DNA from: an uncultured archaeon
GTDB taxonomy: Archaea > Iainarchaeota > Iainarchaeia > Iainarchaeales > CSSED10-239
DNA: 9,480 nt
NCBI GenBank assembly: GCA_964463155.1
Contig: CAYXAY010000028.1
Span: 1-9,480 of the forward strand
Direction: 5' to 3'
Of the stretch, positions 185-9,480 are shown in pieces (position 1 is the stretch's first letter; the number at the start of each line of letters is the position of its first letter). Made by a program: the position numbers and the translations under genes. Below the pieces are notes generated by a model. That model ran no database searches, was not told the origin of the DNA, and saw nothing but the letters and a program-made list of their open reading frames with translations.

Positions 185-288
185 TTGTTTTTTCCTCTTT
201 TAATTGCGAATAATAAAATAGAAAATAAACATGTATTTAAATGTTTCTTTCCTTTATAAATATATTTTAATCTTAAAAAAGATGTATA
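185..288. promoter_or_regulatory. Divergent A/T-rich promoter region between the ferredoxin and platform genes
   Basis: 104-bp spacer. On the + strand, TTTATAAATA at 253-262 lies 27-36 nt upstream of ATG 289 with no purine-rich SD in between. This fits an archaeal TATA box driving a leaderless or near-leaderless mRNA. On the - strand, an A/T block TATTTAAAT (234-242) lies about 50 nt upstream of the ferredoxin ATG, followed by the GAGG SD. Transcription starts cannot be determined from sequence alone. Confidence 0.4.
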
Positions 289-2514
289 ATGCCAGACAAT
301 TATAAAAAAATCAAGGTTTCCAAAGAGATGCCTGGTGAAATCTACAGTTCAATATCTGTGGATTCAAGAGACTTCTCCAAACCTTCTGATAAGCTTTCTA
401 AGAAGAAATCAGACCGTTATGTTGACATCTGCAGAAAAATATACAACTGGCTTCCAAGTCTAGGGCATAATGGAAAATACACAGAGGAATATCAAAAGGC
501 AATTGATTTTCTTGATTGGGATCTTAATCCTCAAGAATATACAGCAGCAGTAAAGTTTACATTGATTGCAGGAATACTTATTGCTGTTCTTTTTTCTGGG
601 TTTATTTGGATTTTTTTAAATGAAATAATATCTAATGCCTTTGGCTCTCCAATCTTTGCCATGTTTTTAATTTTTGGTGTTCCGTTTTTATTGTTTTTTT
701 ATTTGTATAATTTTGTTTTAAGATATCCTTTAAAGAAAGTGCAGAATGAAAAAATAAAAGCTTTGACATTTGTTCCTGAAATCTTAGGTTACATGATTAT
801 GTCAATGAAATTGGTACCAAATCTTGAAAAAGCAATTGAGTTTGCTTCAGAGCACGGACATGGAAAGATTGCTGAGGATTTGAAAAAGCTTCTTTGGGAA
901 GTAAAAGTTGGAATAAAAAACAGTGTTGCTGAAGGTTTAGATGATTTGGCTTATCGTTGGGGAGATGTTTCAATTGAACTTAAGAAAGGGCTAATGAAGA
1001 TTAGGGCATCAATTATTGAATCTTCAGAAAGTAAAAGATTTCAGCTTCTTGACCAGACAATGAATGAGACTTTGGTTTCAGTCAAAGGAAAACTTGAAGA
1101 CTATGCAAGAACCCTAAACCAGCCAGCAACAGTTATGTTTTATCTTGGTATTCTTTTGCCATTGTTACTAATCATTGTTCTTCCAGTTGGTTCAGCATTT
1201 TCAGGTTCAGCTCTTGCTCAACCAATCTATTTGATTTTGATTTACAATATTGCAATACCTCTTTGTTGTTTTTTCTTTGCTAGGGGAATTATTAAGAAAA
1301 GACCACCAACCTACAATCCCCCAAATATTCCAGACGATTATCCTGGTCTTCCAAAAAAGAACCATGTTAGATGGAACCAAACCCAAATAAATGTTTTTAT
1401 TTTGATTGCAATTCTTTTGTTTGGTGGAATCTTTATTGGCTTTACTTTGCAAAAGACACTTGGAATGACAAAGGAAAAGGTTCTAGAAGAAGAGTTTGGA
1501 ACAGCAACGCCTGTTTGGGAATGTACAGACAGAGAGGTTTTACAAAAAAAAAACAATCCAGGTTTTGTTTGTGTGACACAGGAAAGGCAGTTTTGGCAAG
1601 ACCCTAAAAACTCTATTGTCCCATATTTCTTAATTTTTTCAATATTAATTTCTGTAGCGTTATCAATATCGCTTTGGTGTTATGCGACTAGCGTTTATAA
1701 AAGAAAGATTCAGTTGTCAACTGAGACTCAAGAAAAAGAGTTTAAGGACGCATTATACATTATTGCTAGTCGTCTTGGTGAGAATAAGCCAATTGAGGAT
1801 GCCTTTGACCATACAAGACATTTCCTACCAAAATCAATGGTTGCAAAGGATATTTTTGGTAAAACTGTCGATAACATTAGAGTATTAGGACTAACACTGG
1901 AGTCTGCTGTCTTTGACAGAACCTACGGCGCCTTAAAGAACAATCCTTCAACAATCATTAGAAGTGCTATGAGACTGGTTGTTGATTCTGTTCAGATGGG
2001 CGTTAATGTTGCTGCAAAGACCCTTATTTCTTATTCTATGCAACTAAGAAACACAGATGAGATTAATCGTTTGTTGTCAACTTTGATTGCAGAGATTACT
2101 GGAACATTAAACAGCATGGCTAAGTTTATTGGGCCAATAATACTAGGGGTAACAACCACTCTTCATAAGATAGTTATTTCAACTTTAGCATCAGTTGCTA
2201 GTAGTGGTGCTATCCAAGAGATGTCTCAGTCTCTAGAAAATATACAGAGTGGAGACATAGGAATGAATCTTGGTTCAATTTCTTCTTTTGGAAACGCAAT
2301 CAATGTCGATATTGTTGGTAAGCTTGCAGGCGCAACAACCTTTACAATTATTGTTGCGATCTATCTGATTGAGATAGTTCTAATTATGACTTACTTTACA
2401 ACAATGATAGAGCAAGAAAACATGATACTTGTTAAGCACAGGATTGCAAGTACTCTTCCAATTGCCGTTGCTTTGTTTATTATAACAATAATTTTAGCAA
2501 ACTTGATATTATGA
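289..2514 (+). CDS. Type IV filament platform protein, FlaJ/TadC/PilC (T2SS-F) family-like, 741 aa, ~9 TM
   Basis: Long ORF with only short nested or antisense ORFs competing. Hydrophobic segments read by eye at aa ~87-109, 120-144, 281-300, 311-332, 367-387, 444-467, 611-636, 682-703 and 721-741. There are two soluble ~120-aa repeats: aa ~155-275 (..ILGYMIMSMKLVPNLEKAIEFASEHGHGKIAEDLKKLLWEVKVGIKNSVAEGLDDLAYRW..) and aa ~483-600 (..FKDALYIIASRLGENKPIEDAFDHTRHFLPKSMVAKDIFGKTVDNIRVLGLTLESAVFD..). Both follow the helical T2SS-F pattern. Two such repeats separated by TM hairpins is the FlaJ/PilC architecture. The gene is followed by prepilin-like genes. The family call is pattern recognition, not a search result. 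Confidence 0.8.
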   Translation: MPDNYKKIKVSKEMPGEIYSSISVDSRDFSKPSDKLSKKKSDRYVDICRKIYNWLPSLGHNGKYTEEYQKAIDFLDWDLNPQEYTAAVKFTLIAGILIAVLFSGFIWIFLNEIISNAFGSPIFAMFLIFGVPFLLFFYLYNFVLRYPLKKVQNEKIKALTFVPEILGYMIMSMKLVPNLEKAIEFASEHGHGKIAEDLKKLLWEVKVGIKNSVAEGLDDLAYRWGDVSIELKKGLMKIRASIIESSESKRFQLLDQTMNETLVSVKGKLEDYARTLNQPATVMFYLGILLPLLLIIVLPVGSAFSGSALAQPIYLILIYNIAIPLCCFFFARGIIKKRPPTYNPPNIPDDYPGLPKKNHVRWNQTQINVFILIAILLFGGIFIGFTLQKTLGMTKEKVLEEEFGTATPVWECTDREVLQKKNNPGFVCVTQERQFWQDPKNSIVPYFLIFSILISVALSISLWCYATSVYKRKIQLSTETQEKEFKDALYIIASRLGENKPIEDAFDHTRHFLPKSMVAKDIFGKTVDNIRVLGLTLESAVFDRTYGALKNNPSTIIRSAMRLVVDSVQMGVNVAAKTLISYSMQLRNTDEINRLLSTLIAEITGTLNSMAKFIGPIILGVTTTLHKIVISTLASVASSGAIQEMSQSLENIQSGDIGMNLGSISSFGNAINVDIVGKLAGATTFTIIVAIYLIEIVLIMTYFTTMIEQENMILVKHRIASTLPIAVALFIITIILANLIL

Positions 2515-3053
2515 AATTAAAACTTTCAAGAAAAGGAGACAGTGAAAGCTTTGAGACTTTTCGTTTACTTATAGCTTTTGTTCTTGCAACAGCTGTTCTT
2601 GTAATTATAATAAGTATGATTTCAAGCACTAACAAGCAATCAATACTTATCAGTGAGCAGAAACTAAAAGAAGGAGTGCAATCAGCAGTAAAGAGTGCTG
2701 GAACAAGCGCAGAGTTTCCTTTTGTTATTGAGGACTTGATGCTTAGAGGAACAATATCAAAGACAACGATAAGCAATTACTCTGGGCTTTCAAAAGAATG
2801 TATAGCCTTTGTTGGCGGTTCTCAGATGATTCCTACAGATGTAAATGTTGATGGATTAAGAATAAAACCCTCATATCTTAAGATGAATATCTGGGTTTAT
2901 TGTAATTTCCAATCAAATAACCAAACTTTGCCATTGTCTTTATCTAGTCTTAGTGTAGATAGGCAGATAAATCAAGATTCTGATGTGTGTCCGAGATATT
3001 GTGTGTTTTTCTTTAATAGAAAACCTGAAGGCCTATATAACTCCGGAAATTAA
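2511..3053 (+). CDS. Prepilin-like protein with class III signal peptide (180 aa), translationally coupled to the platform gene
   Basis: ATGA start/stop overlap with the platform gene (2511-2514). N-terminus is MKLKLSRKG|DSESFETFRLLIAFVLATAVLVIIISMI (basic leader, Gly, acidic/polar residues, then ~22 hydrophobic residues). It has 4 Cys (97, 131, 160, 164). Length and the C-terminal motifs NIWVYCNFQSN and YCVFFFNRKPE parallel YKVIMCVICSNS and VICVIYPRKTR of the 3805..4335 product. Confidence 0.75.
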   Translation: MKLKLSRKGDSESFETFRLLIAFVLATAVLVIIISMISSTNKQSILISEQKLKEGVQSAVKSAGTSAEFPFVIEDLMLRGTISKTTISNYSGLSKECIAFVGGSQMIPTDVNVDGLRIKPSYLKMNIWVYCNFQSNNQTLPLSLSSLSVDRQINQDSDVCPRYCVFFFNRKPEGLYNSGN

Positions 3054-3100
3054 TATTTAAAAATTATTCTTAACATAATATTTATAGAAAGTGATAATGT

Positions 3101-3598
3101 ATGAATATACTAACAAAAATCTTGTTTATAATTCTTGCAATAGCTGTACTTGCATTGGGTTTTTTAGTTGGGACCTTTATACTTATTTTTATATTTGCTT
3201 TATTGGTACTAATGACTTTGTTGTTTATAGTCATCTGGCTGTTTAACAACATAGTGACTGTGTTTAAAAGCAATCTTGCAAAGCTTGCCTTTAAATCCAT
3301 ATTCTCAATATTAGTAACTTATGGTATTATGGAGTTATTCTGGATATTTACAAGTAAATATTTCATTCAGATGGACAAGACAATAGCAATCTGCACTCTT
3401 TGGGTGGTAGCAGCCATATTCTTTGGAGCATTATGGTATTTACTACATATCAAGCATCAAAACAAAAAGCACCATCAATATCTTTGGGACGAATACAAGA
3501 GGGATTCTAGTAAGCTAAACACGTGGGATGCAATAATGATGGTAATCATGCCATCAATAATCCTTTATGTCTTTAATGCAGTTCATCTTATCATATAA
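3101..3598 (+). CDS. Hypothetical polytopic membrane protein (165 aa, ~5 TM) embedded in the pilin locus
   Basis: ATG preceded by AAGTGAT (3089-3095, partial SD). Very hydrophobic: ILFIILAIAVLALGFLVGTFILIFIFALLVLMTLLFIVIWLF, SIFSILVTYGIMELFWIF, IAICTLWVVAAIFFGALWYLL and AIMMVIMPSIILYVFNAVHLI. It has a His/Lys-rich loop HIKHQNKKHHQY. I recognise no family motif. Confidence 0.7.
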   Translation: MNILTKILFIILAIAVLALGFLVGTFILIFIFALLVLMTLLFIVIWLFNNIVTVFKSNLAKLAFKSIFSILVTYGIMELFWIFTSKYFIQMDKTIAICTLWVVAAIFFGALWYLLHIKHQNKKHHQYLWDEYKRDSSKLNTWDAIMMVIMPSIILYVFNAVHLII

Positions 3599-3630
3599 AC
3601 CCCAAGTATCTCCTAAGCTAGGTTCTGTAA

Positions 3631-3666
3631 AAATCCTTTTAGAATATTAATATTGTAAAAGGGTTT
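3631..3666. repeat. 36-bp near-perfect palindrome (16 of 18 positions pair) in the 206-bp intergenic region upstream of the candidate major pilin gene
   Basis: AAATCCTTTTAGAATATT|AATATTGTAAAAGGGTTT, symmetric about 3648/3649. The mismatches are 3642/3655 (g/g) and 3634/3663 (t/g, which would be a G-U pair in RNA). It lies 33 nt after the stop of 3101..3598 and about 80-130 nt upstream of the TATA-like boxes of 3805..4335. It could be an operator or an RNA hairpin. Confidence 0.6.
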
Positions 3667-3742
3667 CTATAGTCCTGCAAAGAATATAACAAGATTTAAA
3701 AAGATTTTGGTAATATAATTTTTGTTAATATATTTATTTTTC

Positions 3743-3795
3743 AATAAATATTAGTTATATAGTGTCTTTAAAAAAAAGAAAACACAAAAAGGTGA
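3743..3795 (+). promoter_or_regulatory. Candidate promoter and Shine-Dalgarno for the major pilin gene
   Basis: TATA-like AATAAATATT (3743-3752) and TTATATAG (3755-3762) lie 40-60 nt upstream of ATG 3805. GGTGA at 3791-3795, 9 nt before the ATG, is the clearest SD in the window. A phased direct repeat AAGATTT at 3691-3697 and 3701-3707 lies further upstream. This is the only long intergenic gap inside the locus. Confidence 0.4.
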
Positions 3796-3804
3796 AAAAA
3801 GATT

Positions 3805-4335
3805 ATGTTAAAATTAAACAAAAAAGGACAAGCATCATCAACATTTCAATTATTGATTGCTGCAGTTGTTGCACTTGCAATACTTGGAGTTTTATTAAGT
3901 ATATTAAATGTAATTCCAGGAATGAACACAAAACCAGGAGATGCTACTAAAACCTTATTAAAAAGCCAAATGGATAGACCTGGAGAAGAACAATGCACCA
4001 CAAAAGTAACTTTTGATACAAGTTCTGCTAGATTATCTGCTGAAGCAATAACCACAGATACTGGATCAAATGCAGACCAAGTTTTTTTTGCTAATCCAGA
4101 AGAGCTCTCGCAATTTGAACCTAGTGGGACTGGGGGTGTAGAAAACCAATTACTTAAATATAATTCCACAAATACCTATAAAGTAATTATGTGTGTTATT
4201 TGTTCTAATAGTAAAACCGGGTTAGGAAATGCCATAGTGCTTAATCGTAGAGACGGTGATACGAACATAACTGTGCCAACTAGCATACAAGATAACCAAG
4301 TTATTTGTGTAATTTATCCAAGAAAAACAAGGTAG
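3805..4335 (+). CDS. Prepilin-like protein with class III signal peptide (176 aa); candidate major filament subunit
   Basis: N-terminus MLKLNKKG|QASSTFQLLIAAVVALAILGVLLSIL. It has its own promoter-like region and a strong SD. It has 4 Cys (64, 130, 133, 168), N-x-S/T sequons (NST, NIT), and a C-terminal Cys-hydrophobic strand-basic tail (QVICVIYPRKTR). Confidence 0.8.
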   Translation: MLKLNKKGQASSTFQLLIAAVVALAILGVLLSILNVIPGMNTKPGDATKTLLKSQMDRPGEEQCTTKVTFDTSSARLSAEAITTDTGSNADQVFFANPEELSQFEPSGTGGVENQLLKYNSTNTYKVIMCVICSNSKTGLGNAIVLNRRDGDTNITVPTSIQDNQVICVIYPRKTR

Positions 4336-4342
4336 ATAATTT

Positions 4343-4567
4343 ATGAACTTCAAACAAGAGTTTAAGAGGTTATTGATGGATAAGAGAGCTCAAGCTGATG
4401 GGGCTTCTACTCTCTATATGTTAATCATCATAGCCATAGTTGCTCTTGTCCTTATTTCTGTTATTAAACCTATGTTTAATAGCAGTATGAAAACACAAAT
4501 GAATGTTGCAGATTTGCCTAATCAAGGAACACCAGCTACACCAACGGTTAACAACACGCCTTCTTAA
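4343..4567 (+). CDS. Very short prepilin-like protein (74 aa from ATG 4343; 63 aa if translation starts at ATG 4376)
   Basis: ..MDKRA|QADGASTLYMLIIIAIVALVLISVIKPMF, followed by a short polar Thr/Pro-rich tail (PNQGTPATPTVNNTPS). It has no Cys. The internal ATG 4376 is preceded by GAGGT (4366-4370, 5-nt spacer) and would give a typical short class III leader. ATG 4343 is preceded by AGGT (4330-4333). The stop is the same either way. Confidence 0.7.
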   Translation: MNFKQEFKRLLMDKRAQADGASTLYMLIIIAIVALVLISVIKPMFNSSMKTQMNVADLPNQGTPATPTVNNTPS

Positions 4568-4577
4568 ATAACAAACC

Positions 4578-4605
4578 TTTTTAAATTCTTTTTCTATATT
4601 TATTT
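4578..4605 (+). terminator. Two oligo-T tracts (possible archaeal terminator/attenuator) overlapping a TATA-like box for the SD-less downstream gene
   Basis: T5 at 4578-4582 and T5 at 4589-4593 lie directly after the short pilin gene. TTTTTAAATT (4578-4587) lies 24-33 nt upstream of ATG 4611, which has no SD. This is consistent with partial termination after the major subunits and/or an internal promoter for a leaderless minor-pilin mRNA. Not verifiable from sequence alone. Confidence 0.3.
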
Positions 4606-4610
4606 CTAAC

Positions 4611-5207
4611 ATGAAAAATATATTTTTGATTAAAAGTAATAGAGCCCAAGCAAGTGCGCCTTTTGAAGTGCTTGTTGCTGTTATCCTTATGGGCTTTGTT
4701 ATTGTTGCTGGGACATGGGCATTAATGAATCTTTCACAAAGCACATGTATAGGAAACAAAAGACAAAGCATGAGTGAATTAAAAGAAGCAATAACGGATG
4801 TTGTTCTTGGTTCTGACTTAACAATCAAAAATATTAATTTTGATGTTCAACCTTGCTTTAAACAAAGCTATGAGTTTATTAATCTTGTAACCTATAATAA
4901 TCCTACAAAATGTAATGCTTATTGTGGTGGCGGAAACAACTGTATTCTTTTAGAATACACTTATGATGATGAAAAGACAAGAAAACAACCAATACCTCCA
5001 ATCTGTATGGATCTGCCCACAGCAATCAGTTTTGTTGACTCAACAGAATCTTGTGGAGTAAATAATGACGACTGGGTAGCAATGAACCTTATGCGAGGAC
5101 CAACTCAACAACGCAGTAACATAGTTTCAGGAAAATACAGGTTGTTCATGCAAAGCGGAACAAATAGTAATATTTCAAGACAAATGTGTTTTTTAAGAAA
5201 GATATAA
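4611..5207 (+). CDS. Cys-rich prepilin-like protein with class III signal peptide (198 aa)
   Basis: MKNIFLIKSNRA|QASAPFEVLVAVILMGFVIVAGTWAL. The predicted exported part has 8 Cys (STC, QPC, TKC, AYC, NNC, PIC, ESC, QMC). The C-terminus QMCFLRKI repeats the Cys-hydrophobic-basic ending of the 2511 and 3805 products. Confidence 0.75.
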   Translation: MKNIFLIKSNRAQASAPFEVLVAVILMGFVIVAGTWALMNLSQSTCIGNKRQSMSELKEAITDVVLGSDLTIKNINFDVQPCFKQSYEFINLVTYNNPTKCNAYCGGGNNCILLEYTYDDEKTRKQPIPPICMDLPTAISFVDSTESCGVNNDDWVAMNLMRGPTQQRSNIVSGKYRLFMQSGTNSNISRQMCFLRKI

Positions 5208-5208
5208 A

Positions 5209-5859
5209 ATGATTGAATTTTCTTTATCAAAACTAAATATGCTAATCTTTGTTACAGCAGTAGCAGCAATAGTTATATTTTTTATGGCAGCAGTAAATTC
5301 TAATATGAAAACAAGGCAAAGCTATGAGCTTGTCTACAAGGTTGGAAAAGAATTAAAGACTGGAATTGAAAGCAATAGCTATTGTACAGTTAAGTTCATA
5401 TATATCCCAAAAACAATACAAACAAATTCAGGAAGCTCTGATGTCTTTAATATAAAATATAAACTAAATATTTCTGTATACAATCGTGAGCCGAAAACAC
5501 TTGTGTTTGCTATTCTTGACCGAAAAACACATAAGCAAAGAATATATGCTGCAGAGTCAATTGATTACAATGGAGAGATTAAACTTTATAAGTCAAATTG
5601 TACGAATACTGATTGTAATATTGTACTAGTAGAAGACAGAAATTCAGTAGACTATGACCCTTTAAAGGCAAGTTCAATAGACACAACAATATTGTTTGCA
5701 AAAACTATAGATGATGGAAAGCCAAAGGTATATTTGATGCCTTGCCTTTATAAAAACGGCATATATTCTTGTAATGATTTTTTAAATAGTAATAACCTAT
5801 TTAAAATAATTCCGTGCTTAAAGTCTGTTCCTGAACTTAATGAGACGACGCCAACATGA
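5209..5859 (+). CDS. Exported/anchored protein with N-terminal hydrophobic helix, pilin-like but without a canonical [KR]-[GA] cleavage motif (216 aa)
   Basis: Starts 1 nt after the upstream stop (TAAAATG). N-terminus is MIEFSLSKLNMLIFVTAVAAIVIFFMAAV. It has 6 Cys in the exported part and sequons NIS, NCT and NET. Position inside the coupled pilin block supports a minor-subunit role. The pilin call itself is weaker than for its neighbours. Confidence 0.6.
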   Translation: MIEFSLSKLNMLIFVTAVAAIVIFFMAAVNSNMKTRQSYELVYKVGKELKTGIESNSYCTVKFIYIPKTIQTNSGSSDVFNIKYKLNISVYNREPKTLVFAILDRKTHKQRIYAAESIDYNGEIKLYKSNCTNTDCNIVLVEDRNSVDYDPLKASSIDTTILFAKTIDDGKPKVYLMPCLYKNGIYSCNDFLNSNNLFKIIPCLKSVPELNETTPT

Positions 5860-6359
5860 ACAAAAAAGGATATATCGGAGCAATTGGAGATGATCTTCCA
5901 AGTCTTATACCAATCTTTTTAGGTATAACAATCTTCTTTGCTGTGTTTTTAAACACCTACAATGTCTATAGAAACAACACAGACCTTTATTCCCTAAGAA
6001 ACGACGCAATTAACATTTCAGCAATCATGAAAGAAGAACCATTAATCTCTGATAGAAACCAGTTTTTAAAATCCTGTCAAAGAGTAAACACCAAATATAA
6101 TTGGAATGCATTTATTACTCCCGCGCATTTAAACTCGCAAAATTATGAGGGGCTTTCGCCTAATGACTTAAACAATAATGTGTTACTGCGCCATTGGGAT
6201 TCTTCTGTAACGGATTATCTAATCTGCAGTAATGATGGACTAGATATTTTAAAAAACGCACTAAAAACAAAAGATGTAACAATTTATAAATACCCAATAA
6301 GTGTTCAAGAAAAATTCTATGTTGCGCCTGCTTGGCTATATGTGGTTGTTTGGAAGTGA
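5856..6359 (+). CDS. Prepilin-like protein with class III-like signal peptide (167 aa)
   Basis: ATGA overlap with the upstream gene (5856-5859). N-terminus is MNKKG|YIGAIGDDLPSLIPIFLGITIFFAVFL. It has 2 Cys and sequons NNT and NIS. Confidence 0.65.
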   Translation: MNKKGYIGAIGDDLPSLIPIFLGITIFFAVFLNTYNVYRNNTDLYSLRNDAINISAIMKEEPLISDRNQFLKSCQRVNTKYNWNAFITPAHLNSQNYEGLSPNDLNNNVLLRHWDSSVTDYLICSNDGLDILKNALKTKDVTIYKYPISVQEKFYVAPAWLYVVVWK

Positions 6360-6367
6360 TTAAAAGG

Positions 6368-7171
6368 ATGTTACAAATAAAAACAAGAAAAGGACAAGCA
6401 GCAATAACAGACGCCTTATTCTTCTTATTGGTAATTGTGACCCTTTCTGTTCTTATGTTTAGATATTCTTCAACATATGGTTCAAGAATAGACCAAGCAA
6501 CATCAGACCTTTACTACAAAGAATACACAAACTCTGTTCTAAAAACAATATTTTATGTTTCTGCGCCATTAGATTACAATCTAAATCTTGAAGAAAGCAA
6601 GGAAAACGATTATCTTATGGCAATGGTAAAACAAGACTTTTATGCTCATGGAAAAATTGGGTTTTCTGATGTTAACAAGTTGTCCACTTCTAACTCGTCT
6701 AATGTAATCGACTACAGAGACCTTGCAAAATACCATCTTTATCACACAGTAAAAGCTACAATGGCCCCTTTAACCGCTCACGATTATTTGTTTTATCTTT
6801 ATAATACAGATAACGATTCATTTGCATATTTCATGATAAAAAACACGGATTTTAATCTTGAACAAATACCTTCCCTACCAAGAAATGCAAGTGCAAGAGG
6901 CATTGTTGTTTATGGTATAGCTGGCGAAATCAACTACTTATGTAATCCAAACAGCTATTCAGATGTCAGAGCAGTTGTCTCAAAATCTCCAAAGATATTC
7001 TCTTCATCAATACCTTTGTCTTTTGTGCATAATGAAACAGGAAGCGAGGACCAGACAGTAAAATTAACAGACCACACGATTGTTGCGACCTTTGCTCTTT
7101 GGCCAGCAACAGTTGATATTAACTCTAGTGTTTTAGAAAATCTTTCTTGTGAAATAGTAAATTTAAGTTAA
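6368..7171 (+). CDS. Prepilin-like protein with class III signal peptide (268 aa), largest of the set
   Basis: The track ORF begins at a TTG (6332) that overlaps the upstream gene by 28 nt. ATG 6368 lies 8 nt after the upstream stop and gives MLQIKTRKG|QAAITDALFFLLVIVTLSVLMF, the same leader type as 3805. It has 2 Cys and many N-x-S/T sequons (NSS, NDS, NAS, NET, NSS, NLS). Confidence 0.75.
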   Translation: MLQIKTRKGQAAITDALFFLLVIVTLSVLMFRYSSTYGSRIDQATSDLYYKEYTNSVLKTIFYVSAPLDYNLNLEESKENDYLMAMVKQDFYAHGKIGFSDVNKLSTSNSSNVIDYRDLAKYHLYHTVKATMAPLTAHDYLFYLYNTDNDSFAYFMIKNTDFNLEQIPSLPRNASARGIVVYGIAGEINYLCNPNSYSDVRAVVSKSPKIFSSSIPLSFVHNETGSEDQTVKLTDHTIVATFALWPATVDINSSVLENLSCEIVNLS

Positions 7172-7863
7172 AACTTTAATCCAAGTTCATCTGTTTCTTC
7201 ATTTTCTTCAGTAACTTCTTCTTCATCACCAAAGTTAAGCTTTAACTCTTCTTTTTCTTTCTTTTCTTTTTTTTTCTCTGCAGGCTTTTCTTTTGGTTTC
7301 TCTTCGTGTTTTTTACTTTTTGGTTTTTCTTCAGTCATTGCCTTTTGAAGATTTTCTTTTTCATCTTTAGTTCTTATGTCTTCTTTTTTATTTTCTTCAA
7401 CAACATCATCAATTACAAGTTCTAATTCTTTTCTATCCATTAAAAAATCAAAGTTTTCGCCTGTTCTAGATGCGACATCTGTTGTGTTTTCTGTACTTGT
7501 ATTTCTTCTTGAAGACCGGTAATGCGCATTATTCTTAACAGCTTGCTTAACGCTCTCTAGAGTTATATTTACATCTGTGTTTGATTTTGACAATTGTGAA
7601 TAAATCACATCAGTTATCTCATCAATATCAGGATTAATTGTGTTTTTCATATCTTTTAGAATTTTGTCAATGATTATTTTCTTTTCATCACTAGTTATTT
7701 CTTTTGATGGCTTTGAGGCAGAGAGGATTTCTGTTTTTTCTATCCTGTTTTCTTTTATAACTGATGTTTCTTTCTGTTTCTGACCAGCATTATACTCTAT
7801 CTCCCCATCCTTTTCTGTCCTGTAAAATCTTCTTTCTCTTCTCTTGATTTTAGTAATGTCCAT
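7168..7863 (-). CDS. Hypothetical highly charged K/E-rich protein (231 aa) with acidic C-terminal tail
   Basis: ATG (complement of 7861-7863) is preceded on the minus strand by AGGA about 9 nt upstream. The C-terminal third is low complexity (EEKPKSKKHEEKPKEKPAEKKKEKKEKEE) and ends in GDEEEVTEENEETDELGLKF. It has no TM segment or signal peptide. It converges on the pilin block with a shared TTAA (7168-7171) holding both stops. Confidence 0.7.
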   Translation of the reverse strand: MDITKIKRRERRFYRTEKDGEIEYNAGQKQKETSVIKENRIEKTEILSASKPSKEITSDEKKIIIDKILKDMKNTINPDIDEITDVIYSQLSKSNTDVNITLESVKQAVKNNAHYRSSRRNTSTENTTDVASRTGENFDFLMDRKELELVIDDVVEENKKEDIRTKDEKENLQKAMTEEKPKSKKHEEKPKEKPAEKKKEKKEKEELKLNFGDEEEVTEENEETDELGLKF

Positions 7864-7963: not shown

Positions 7964-8488
7964 ATGAACCAAATAATATCTACAATACTAAATTATGTAT
8001 GGGTTTTTATAAAAATACTGCTATTTAGTGCAGCAATGTCCTTACCATTTATTGGCGTAACATATTTTTTACAAAAACCATTTGATTGGCTTAGAACAAA
8101 GAAAAAACTAAGTTTTTCCTTGTCTTTGTTTATTACAATCTTTTGTTCATCATTCATTATTCTTATATTTGTTTATTTCTTGCCAATACTTGACAAATTT
8201 GCAAGATTTACTTTCCTAGAAGGAATTGCTTTTTTCTTTTTACAGATTGCAAGATTATTGCTTGTAAACCTATTATTCTCAGGAATGATTTTTATAATTG
8301 CAATGTTTATTGTATTATTGTATGATTCTTTTAAAGAAAAGAAAAAGACAAAAACAAAAGCCAAGCAGAAATCGTCTTTCTTAAAACTCTGGAAGGCATT
8401 TACTATGGTTTTCTTTGTTGTCTTTTTGTTTGTGTTCATTATTTTTCCAAAAATATTTGCAATAATTTTATATTTGATATTTATGTAA
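7964..8488 (+). CDS. Hypothetical polytopic membrane protein (174 aa, ~5-6 TM) with Lys-rich loop
   Basis: The sequence is hydrophobic throughout (VWVFIKILLFSAAMSLPFIGV, LSLFITIFCSSFIILIFVYFLPIL, IAFFFLQIARLLLVNLLFSGMIFIIAMFIVLLY, AFTMVFFVVFLFVFIIFPKIFAIILYLIF). It has a basic loop KEKKKTKTKAKQK. The stop lies 12 nt before the next ATG. Confidence 0.7.
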   Translation: MNQIISTILNYVWVFIKILLFSAAMSLPFIGVTYFLQKPFDWLRTKKKLSFSLSLFITIFCSSFIILIFVYFLPILDKFARFTFLEGIAFFFLQIARLLLVNLLFSGMIFIIAMFIVLLYDSFKEKKKTKTKAKQKSSFLKLWKAFTMVFFVVFLFVFIIFPKIFAIILYLIFM

Positions 8489-8500
8489 GGTGTTTTTCAA

Positions 8501-9480
8501 ATGAACGAGTCAATAAAAAAATTATGGGTTTTTTTCTTTCTAATAATTATCTGTAATAGTGTGTTTGCATATGGCATAGACCCTGACAGACTTTATTTTG
8601 CAGAAAGCACAAAGTCTTCAGATGGAGTTGTCTTTGATCGTGGAAACGGCTGTATGACTAAAAAGCTTTCTGAAAAGGAAGTTAACGCTTTATGGAGTAA
8701 GATATTGGTTAAAGGCTTTTCAGCAGACATTTTTGACTCTGACCAGCCAGCAAACCCAAAAAGAGAAACACTTAACAAAAATGAAGTAATACTTGCAGGA
8801 GCAGACGCAAAAGCAGGGGATTTGGCTTTAAAAAGAGAGATTCCTTCAAAGTTAATGAATCCAGCAGACACTCCAATGCTTATTGGTAAAACCTGTGAAG
8901 GGCCTTATGGTTACGGACTTAATCTTAAAGACACATTTAGAGTAGGAAGATGTACAGATCCTAATGGAGCATGTTATCTTGACGAACCAGGAATGTATAG
9001 ACAAAATGGATTAACTGGCTTTTGGAAAGAAACAAAATCAGTTACAAAAGATCTCTTTGTTGGAGTAAAAGATATGTTTAAAGCAGATACTAATACTGAA
9101 GCCAACAACACAATAAAGGAAAATCTTGATGTTTTTTCTGACATGTCAACCTACGAGATTCAAAAGATTCAGGAATCAATGCAATCAAACAATGTTAATG
9201 CTTTAGAACTTGAAACCTGGTCAGCAATAAGCGACAAGGTTATTCAAAATTCTTCAAAGACTACAAACTTCTTAGTAACAATGCAAACAACCTGTAGTGG
9301 AGAAAACTGTTACATCAACACATATTCTTTATTTGACAAAATGTTTAATCAATATTTTTCTATAGATATGGTTTACAGTTCAGCAACTCCTTTCTTGTTT
9401 AATGGCGCAGCAAGAATATTTACTGTTCCTGGTGTAAAGAATGCGGTTATGAAACCAACAAAATGGATGAAAGATAAAGG
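8501..9480 (+). CDS. Secreted protein with Sec-type signal peptide, N-terminal 326 codons; continues beyond the window
   Basis: Hand translation from ATG 8501 (GGTG at 8489-8492, 8-nt spacer) gives MNESIKKLWVFFFLIIICNSVFA|YGIDPDRLYFAESTKSSDGVVFDRGNGCMTKK...GKTCEGPYGYGLNLKDTFRVGRCTDPNGACYLDEPGMYRQNG...TTCSGENCYINTYSLFDKMFNQYF...KPTKWMKDK. There is no stop through base 9480. The n-h-c signal has V-F-A at -3..-1. The mature part seen so far has 6 Cys, including C-x6-C and C-x4-C pairs. It is missing from the ORF track because there is no stop in the window. The - strand ORF 8593..8871 is its shadow. Confidence 0.8.
   Translation, partial: MNESIKKLWVFFFLIIICNSVFAYGIDPDRLYFAESTKSSDGVVFDRGNGCMTKKLSEKEVNALWSKILVKGFSADIFDSDQPANPKRETLNKNEVILAGADAKAGDLALKREIPSKLMNPADTPMLIGKTCEGPYGYGLNLKDTFRVGRCTDPNGACYLDEPGMYRQNGLTGFWKETKSVTKDLFVGVKDMFKADTNTEANNTIKENLDVFSDMSTYEIQKIQESMQSNNVNALELETWSAISDKVIQNSSKTTNFLVTMQTTCSGENCYINTYSLFDKMFNQYFSIDMVYSSATPFLFNGAARIFTVPGVKNAVMKPTKWMKDK

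Follow-up and report, generated by a model that had tools for sequence, protein, structure and literature searches.

The genes for the secretion ATPase and for TadC in archaea are treated as one evolutionary module, whose history is independent of that of the pilin sets (Makarova, Koonin & Albers 2016, PMC4858521). In Clade 1 (Epd) of that census, the parts consist of an ATPase, two TadC genes, major pilins of ~70 amino acids (aa), at least five minor pilins, large proteins, and the EppA peptidase, and no Iainarchaeota are included in the census (PMC4858521). Dark-matter islands of DPANN archaea, encoding a FlaI-type ATPase, TadC/TadB, and signal-peptide proteins, have been predicted to represent divergent type IV pili (T4P) (Makarova, Wolf & Koonin 2019, PMC6393860, Fig. 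2A). In addition, System 1 was recently reported in some DPANN, using models based on co-localization, with the Nanobdellati (DPANN) screened in unordered mode (Sivabalasarma & Albers 2026 preprint, 10.64898/2026.04.22.720090). Here, a stretch of 9,480 nucleotides (nt) from an uncultured archaeon of the Iainarchaeota was analyzed (positions 1-9,480 of contig CAYXAY010000028.1, assembly GCA_964463155.1; G+C 32%), referred to below as the window, in which a gene encoding a 741-aa platform protein is followed by eight open reading frames (ORFs) on the same strand. The window very probably holds the platform-plus-pilin part of a T4P-like type IV filament system, conserved across Iainarchaeota/Diapherotrites (DPANN), whose ATPase gene has been relocated, the enzyme acting in trans, which agrees with a first-pass annotation, made from the sequence alone, that had called it an archaeal type IV filament locus. 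The evidence comprises family membership by transitive homology, synteny, relocation of the ATPase gene, and motif conservation, and the locus represents a divergent example of an already known machine, not a new mechanism.

Judged by its parts, the locus appears to come nearest in its layout to the Epd/System 1 pili known from Methanococcus, Methanobacteriales, and Thermococcales. Both have a secretion ATPase, a TadC-type platform, at least five minor pilins, and large surface proteins, together with a ~70-aa pilin without a globular head (here g74, beginning RA↓Q, the arrow marking the putative cleavage site) and a Gln at position +1 of most pilin-like proteins. However, Epd has two TadC genes, whereas a single platform gene is present here (741 aa; 725-790 aa in relatives), possibly a fusion of two TadC genes. 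The locus further differs in having no EppA-type peptidase, MinD/FleN ATPase, or transglutaminase-like gene, in the unlinked ATPase of the window's clade, and in its pilin families, which lack a detectable relation to arCOG06620 or DUF361 as far as the want of a Pfam match tells. The DPANN dark-matter islands share the FlaI-type ATPase, the TadC/TadB-type protein, small signal-peptide proteins, and surface proteins, but they were described generically, with neither Iainarchaeota-wide pilin families nor a clade from which the ATPase has departed. Similarities to the bacterial Tad/Flp pilus include the CpaF-like ATPase (E 4.6e-26), a short headless pilin-like subunit (g74, with a weak, sub-threshold Flp_Fap match at E 0.13), and a platform that would correspond to two TadB/TadC-like halves, yet the system here is archaeal, its platform is a single polypeptide, its motif is [KR]G↓Q instead of G↓xxxxEY, and there is no secretin or RcpA/TadD. 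Finally, the ATPase and platform come from the same superfamilies as FlaI/ArlI and FlaJ/ArlJ of the archaellum, but the ATPase has ~250 additional aa and a Cys-rich region at its N-terminus, and no archaellin (PF01917), FlaH, FlaF, FlaG, or FlaCDE/X was found among the window proteins (Pfam) or in the precomputed annotations of related loci. It could be speculated, although we regard this as doubtful, that the Iainarchaeota system forms a distinct subtype of the type IV filament machinery of archaea, as yet unclassified, with the ATPase-platform module split in one clade. The features that might then define it, taken jointly and just as tentatively, would be a double-size platform in one protein with a second half not recognizable as T2SSF, a ~770-aa ATPase with an N-terminal Cys-rich domain, pilin families of its own (KG↓FIGPIGDDLPSLIPL and the leader-less MLG↓FTLSK), and a head fold without a solved neighbor.

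The platform protein belongs to a family of 354 homologues of 725-790 aa, conserved over their full length and labeled Iainarchaeum, Diapherotrites, or ainarchaeum, some of which are named 'type II secretion system F family' by their sources. Identity to the window protein is bimodal, with 43 clusters at 56-100% followed by values of <=48%, and distant full-length orthologues align at 43-48% identity with E values of about 1e-200. The Pfam model T2SSF (PF00482), for the F protein of the type II secretion system, is matched by 20 of the 26 aligned members, always in the N-terminal half at residues about 170-310, and P0074, P0064, and P0082 score 27.0-27.8 bits, above the gathering score of 25.2. 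Since full-length orthologues at about 44% identity thus pass the gathering score, membership of the window protein in the GspF/PilC/TadC/FlaJ superfamily is supported by transitive homology. The helical, polytopic AlphaFold2 model of the protein and the best Foldseek match of that model, weak as it is, to PilC of 3jc8 also speak for a platform. An exact look-up of the window's platform sequence returned nothing.

In most Iainarchaeota, the same platform gene follows an ATPase gene. A scan for the ATPase in GTDB species-representative genomes gave 80 loci, among which the complete AR10 genome and Ca. Iainarchaeum andersonii are represented, and 73 of the loci were informative. A platform gene comes after the T2SSE ATPase gene in 65 of these 73 (about 89%), within 300 nt in 56, 0.4-4.2 kb downstream in eight, and overlapping by estimate in one, with none in the remaining eight. 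For example, four loci whose platform is 43-48% identical to that of the window (L005, L006, L008, and L010) carry a gene for a 761-764-aa PF00437 (T2SSE) ATPase directly upstream of it, while downstream lie the same string of small genes, a minus-strand gene, a ~178-aa gene, and a gene for a 1,500-1,540-aa protein. In coupled loci generally, the platform gene is followed by genes of these six or seven small-protein families and by that of the giant protein. What had been hypothetical proteins can now be listed as the defined parts of an Iainarchaeota-wide set: a platform, pilin-like proteins of six or seven families, and a giant surface protein. In the window and its clade (platform >=56% identical), the platform gene is not adjacent to a T2SSE ATPase gene. 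A ferredoxin and an AP-endonuclease lie upstream in all clade members examined, and no ATPase is encoded within +-10 kb of the platform in 12 clade loci (L001-4, L007, L009, L091-94, and L140-141). Pfam and NCBIfam scans likewise detected neither an ATPase nor a peptidase gene in the window, in accordance with the first-pass annotation, and its divergent upstream neighbor is indeed a 4Fe-4S ferredoxin gene on the minus strand. Because the same platform and pilin families follow a T2SSE ATPase in most relatives, the orphan state of the platform gene is best explained as a derived, lineage-specific operon split confined to the window's clade. A normally inseparable ATPase-platform module would be divided, with the platform remaining with the pilins. 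Detectors requiring co-located ATPase and platform genes will overlook the system in this clade at least, in which the ATPase gene is found next to replication genes. The platform gene had also been described as first in its unit with a TATA-like box, and this is supported by the ~75 nt upstream of its ATG, including CCTTTATAAATATA, which are nearly invariant among six loci of a subgroup with 72-84% platform identity and are more conserved than the coding sequence there. Such conservation is consistent with a dedicated promoter.

Stand-alone orthologues of the ATPase are found elsewhere in Iainarchaeota, which match the coupled ones in length and in their N-terminal motif (MKIG..KVGD...C..C...C..H). 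In L088, L115, L116, and L142-144, the stand-alone gene lies in a conserved MCM-RPA synteny. The homologues of this ATPase are bimodal in identity, with 31 clusters at 72-93% and then values of <=61%, and this type was tied to the window's clade because its distribution mirrors that of the platform. Furthermore, L115 (NPIE01004678.1) and L007 (NPIE01002285.1), the latter with a window-type platform, belong to the same assembly, NPIE01, and show a tetranucleotide correlation of r=0.98, and L088 correlates at 0.99 with the platform contigs L001, L002, and L091. One exact ATPase sequence, P0246, occurs on three contigs from exactly the same three samples (JGI 3300014204, JGI 3300035208, and ENA ERZ27247350) as the exact platform sequence P0003 of the closest well-sampled relative, with r of 0.98-0.99 between the two sets of contigs. 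The ATPase is FlaI/GspE/CpaF-like, matching FlaI at E 8.7e-27 and CpaF at E 4.6e-26. No genes are common to the ATPase and platform neighborhoods in the clade, the two loci being >10-20 kb apart, and the assemblies of the P0009, P0006, and P0007 platforms had none in common with a stand-alone ATPase. Of the two alternatives left by the first-pass annotation, action of the ATPase in trans from elsewhere is favored for the window's clade by the clade-matched stand-alone gene, its co-occurrence by sample, and its composition, and we infer the same for the window's own genome.

A second subclade of stand-alone ATPases lies near FttA/aCPSF1 in L053 (Ca. Forterrea), L054, L058, L065, L067, L070, and others, and the uncoupling of ATPase and platform has probably occurred more than once in Iainarchaeota. 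This L054/Forterrea type was rejected as the partner of the window's platform, as its tetranucleotide correlations are 0.84-0.93 compared with 0.98-0.99 for the L088/L142 type, and L115 is just 56% identical to it.

Several observations were made on the ATPase loci themselves. The extra ~250-residue N-terminal region of the ~760-aa ATPase contains an invariant C-x2-C ... C-x2-H at residues about 26-44, which suggests a zinc-binding domain specific to this family. Seven orthologues (P0150, P0151, P0155, P0172, P0178, P0179, and P0182) are 1,260-1,290 aa long and harbor an intein bearing a homing endonuclease of the LAGLIDADG type (PF14528, PF14890). Just upstream of the coupled ATPase lies a minus-strand gene for an exosortase/archaeosortase-like protein (PF09721) of 182-189 aa (L005:5922-6470, L008:4835-5404, and L010:5644-6198), and in the same three loci a gene for a giant 2,600-2,800-aa protein is also found just upstream of the ATPase; a weak exosortase/archaeosortase-like homologue precedes the L054-type stand-alone ATPases (L065:9206-9847). 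In L115, a gene 2 kb upstream of the stand-alone ATPase (3341-7783, minus strand) encodes a 1,480-aa protein whose signal peptide is of the canonical class III type, MNKKLNKG↓QASLEVLLILGVV, and whose C-terminal region is Hint/intein-like; this protein may be a giant pilin-like surface protein. Archaeal ATPase-platform contigs are also present in metagenome-assembled genomes labeled Candidatus Falkowbacteria and Chloroflexota/Chloroflexi (L015, L020, and L023), where the bacterial labels probably reflect binning contamination.

Seven of the ORFs downstream of the platform gene had been listed in the first-pass annotation, and the ORF list confirms both these, with their N-termini as written, and the 741-aa ORF itself, while an eighth, encoding a 165-aa protein that is not pilin-like, had been overlooked. 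When a loose class III rule ([KR][GA]x plus a strong hydrophobic stretch) is applied to the 124 ORFs of >=100 aa from six related loci, 21 are selected, and 19 of these are orthologues in this cluster, a concentration that is far above chance and not a by-product of the AT-rich composition. The strict FlaFind-type pattern, which reportedly goes back to Szabo and colleagues in 2007, fits g176, g74, g198, and g266, all with Gln at +1. The claim that six of the seven proteins carry class III N-termini thus holds under the loose rule, but only four of them pass the strict pattern. Across 35-49 Iainarchaeota loci, each small-protein family has a sharply conserved N-terminus. The consensus is KG↓QAFSVFKLLIAAVVA for g176 (49 loci), [KR]G↓QESAPFELLIAVIVM for g198 (47 loci), and [KR]G↓QAAITDALYFL, or KG↓QAAITDALYFLLIV, for g266 (45 loci). 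The g74 family, with members of 49-81 aa, has RA↓QSEWxSxYMLIVL...VKPMF (36 loci), and the g180 family has [KR]G↓Q[AE]F[ED]x[FY]RLLI, e.g., KG↓QAFEAYRLLIA (35 loci), with Asp instead of Gln at +1 in the window's subgroup. The g167 family has KG↓FIGPIGDDLPSLIPL, with a near-invariant KGF[IL]GPIGDDLPSLIPL (41 loci), and the g216 family has MLG↓FTLSKLNLLILV (40 loci), with Glu replacing Gly in the window's clade. By these features the small proteins are pilin-like in architecture and motif, and the first-pass view that their domains could not be assigned to any named family was borne out by Pfam, NCBIfam, and, for g176, Foldseek. The g176 family comprises 265 representative clusters of relatives, and in the AlphaFold2 model of g176 (pLDDT 89.8) an N-terminal hydrophobic helix at residues 11-34 is joined to an alpha/beta head; C133 and C168 are invariant. 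By analogy to the roughly 70-aa major pilins of Epd (PMC4858521), g74 is a candidate major subunit.

Two of these families have unusual N-termini. In g167, the hydrophobic stretch starts ~12 residues past the putative cleavage site, and to our knowledge the motif KGF[IL]GPIGDDLPSLIPL resembles no pilin motif. Outside the window's clade, g216 has a G↓FTL motif like that of bacterial pilins, with a leader of 2-3 residues and no basic residue, while within the clade the protein begins MIEF and the Gly is lost.

A number of results weigh against reading the window as part of a type IV filament system with its ATPase in trans. The window's platform protein matches T2SSF neither in Pfam (E<=1) nor in NCBIfam, and P0003, which is 80% identical to it, likewise lacks a match; the first-pass annotation had named this outcome as one that would refute the filament locus, but it is overturned by the PF00482 matches of the orthologues. 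The two T2SS-F/FlaJ-like repeats claimed for the protein were not demonstrated either, as the C-terminal halves of 10 members have no Pfam match even at E<=10 and an hhalign comparison of the N-terminal with the C-terminal half was not significant (E 0.21). A profile of the platform family found no match among PDB sequences. The AlphaFold2 model is an all-helical polytopic protein (pLDDT 77, pTM 0.72), and its top Foldseek match is chain Ca of 3jc8 (PilC in the type IVa pilus machine model; probability 0.82), but this match is weak (E 0.22, TM-scores 0.15/0.28) and none reached E<=1e-3; the helix pattern of the model would be compatible with a second bundle. Among the small proteins, g180 (KG↓D) and g167 (KG↓Y) fit the loose rule only, having a non-canonical cleavage pattern, g216 fails both rules, and no pilin candidate matches a curated Pfam or NCBIfam model for pilins, archaellins, or class III signals. 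Foldseek comparison of the g176 model with the PDB gave no significant neighbor and no solved pilin. The trans ATPase was demonstrated in relatives with 80% and 62% platform identity rather than in the window's genome, no A24 peptidase gene was found in the window or in any flank examined, coupled or split, and no filament has been observed experimentally.

As the genes for prepilin peptidases are often unlinked in archaea (PMC4858521), the lack of a linked one is uninformative. The first-pass remark that none lies nearby is correct as an observation, but it marks no oddity of the window, since the relatives examined likewise have none linked. Only one GxGD protease was seen, an A22 SPP/presenilin homologue (PF06550, E 7e-22; L142:4058-4903, minus strand), whose gene lies ~5 kb upstream of that for the stand-alone ATPase and is conserved also in L088 and L116; it was rejected as the prepilin peptidase because it belongs to family A22, not A24. 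A 336-aa protein encoded upstream of coupled ATPases was rejected for having no Pfam match, and the 165-aa and 174-aa transmembrane (TM) proteins of the window for having no GxGD motif by eye.

Taken together, the parts suggest how the system may work. The 741-aa polytopic protein of the GspF/PilC/TadC/FlaJ family would form the membrane platform, and six small class III-type proteins ([KR][GA]↓Q/F) would be inserted in the membrane and cleaved by a prepilin peptidase encoded elsewhere. The processed subunits would then be polymerized on the platform into a surface filament, with energy supplied by the roughly 770-aa FlaI/GspE/CpaF-family ATPase. The headless 74-aa protein and/or the 176-aa protein would be the main subunits and the rest minor or initiating pilins, while the giant secreted protein encoded downstream would likely be an adhesin or surface partner. 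Ancestrally, the ATPase gene probably stood immediately upstream of the platform gene, as it still does in ~89% of related species, and in the window's clade it has moved beside the MCM and RPA genes, its product probably acting in trans and the platform gene having gained, or retained, its own conserved promoter. We infer cleavage, filament formation, the subunit roles, and a function in adhesion or host contact from these parts. DPANN archaea are thought to be host-attached, and type IV filaments are prime candidates for the contact.

Instead of an adhesive pilus, the same machine might build a short pseudopilus serving protein secretion, DNA/nucleotide uptake, or display of the giant surface protein, which we consider unlikely, though less so than the other alternatives. 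The many different minor pilin-like proteins, with one short headless subunit and no clearly dominant major pilin gene, would suit a pseudopilus, as would the giant secreted protein that is always linked and an ATPase as near to GspE and CpaF as to FlaI. DPANN archaea, moreover, rely on external nucleotides and lipids. However, the data do not discriminate filament length or function, there is no secretin or DNA-binding component, and the class III proteins lack substrate-binding domains. It is very improbable that the platform-pilin cluster is a decaying, non-functional remnant of the broken operon. While the window platform has drifted below Pfam detection and, in its clade, g180 has lost the +1 Gln and g216 the -1 Gly, all genes are intact in the window and at least 12 relatives at 56-84% identity, gene order is conserved, the region upstream of the platform gene is nearly invariant, and the N-terminal motifs are strictly kept in four families. 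An ATPase-independent or otherwise reorganized filament system, the second alternative of the first-pass annotation, might be read from the 12 clade loci in which no ATPase gene lies within +-10 kb of the platform, but it has next to no likelihood, as most relatives have these gene families coupled to an ATPase gene and the clade has kept an orthologous ATPase (72-93% identity) that co-occurs with the platform sample for sample. Equally hard to credit is a superficial likeness, in which the 741-aa protein would be an unrelated membrane protein and the small ones surface proteins of an ordinary kind, N-terminally anchored or secreted by Sec: no Pfam pilin match and no fold match for g176 were found and the hydrophobic stretch begins 7-12 residues past the putative cleavage site, but platform orthologues exceed the T2SSF gathering score, platform and T2SSE ATPase genes are physically coupled in about 89% of species, and an invariant [KR]G↓Q just ahead of a hydrophobic helix in several independent families is no feature of Sec signals.

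A type IV filament locus with its ATPase encoded elsewhere remains the preferred reading, and the features of the window are collected in Table 1. The ORFs of the cluster are spaced by -4 to 47 nt except for one AT-rich gap, and g266 most likely starts at ATG 6371 (266 aa, MLQIKTRKGQ...) rather than at TTG 6332. Scans for tRNA genes and Rfam families in the window were both empty.

Table 1 Features of the window and their coordinates (arrow, putative cleavage site).
Feature	Position	Strand	Remarks
4Fe-4S ferredoxin	start about 183	-	Divergent from platform gene; Fer4 matches on orthologue
Promoter-like 5' region of platform gene	214..288	+	TATA-like CCTTTATAAATATA ~27-36 nt before ATG
Platform protein, 741 aa, ~8 TM (hydropathy)	289..2514	+	One detectable T2SSF-type cytoplasmic domain, residues ~150-300
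g180, pilin-like, 180 aa, KG↓DSESFETFRLLIAF...	2511..3053	+	Start overlaps platform stop by 4 nt
Polytopic membrane protein, 165 aa, ~4 TM	3101..3598	+	ORF list, hydropathy; clade-specific accessory gene
AT-rich gap, 206 nt	3599..3804	+	TATA-like stretch and GGTGA ribosome-binding site ahead of g176
g176, pilin-like, 176 aa, KG↓QASSTFQLLIAAVVA...	3805..4335	+	Globular head and invariant Cys pair
g74, short headless pilin-like, 74 aa, RA↓QADGASTLYMLIIIAIV...VKPMF	4343..4567	+	Candidate major filament subunit
g198, pilin-like, 198 aa, RA↓QASAPFEVLVAVILMGF...	4611..5207	+	
g216, N-terminally anchored, 216 aa, MIEFSLSKLNMLIFV...	5209..5859	+	Without cleavage motif in window's clade
g167, pilin-like, 167 aa, KKG↓YIGAIGDDLPSLIPIF...	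5856..6359	+	
g266, pilin-like, RKG↓QAAITDALFFLLVIV...	6371..7171	+	Listed ORF begins at TTG 6332 (279 aa)
K/E-rich soluble protein, 231 aa	7168..7863	-	Convergent; position-conserved; membership uncertain
Membrane protein, 174 aa, 4 TM (hydropathy)	7964..8488	+	Precedes giant protein
Giant secreted protein, N-terminus, Sec-type signal	8501..9480	+	Continues past window end

The conserved unit reaches past position 7171 and includes the minus-strand K/E-rich gene, the 174-aa membrane protein, and the giant secreted protein. A minus-strand gene of 240-280 aa occupies the position of the K/E-rich gene in all relatives examined, and sequence homologues of the 231-aa protein itself, which has no Pfam match, are found only in the window's clade. 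Where the window encodes the 174-aa membrane protein, likewise without a Pfam match, a gene of about 178 aa is conserved in relatives. The giant protein is 1,500-1,770 aa long in relatives and has no Pfam domain match; even in distant loci the cluster is followed by an orthologue, at 25-33% identity, and the giant protein is a candidate adhesin or surface component. The 165-aa membrane protein, which has no Pfam match, has homologues only in the window's clade. Finally, the 206-nt gap preceding position 3805 is a variable site at which relatives hold 1-4 extra genes (e.g., L001:13430-14209 and L002:13305-16310), and it is possible that it serves both as an internal promoter for the pilin genes and as a cassette site. 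Some of these extra genes are paralogues of g176 with an N-terminal extension of ~95 aa (P0298, P0299, P0301, and P0304).

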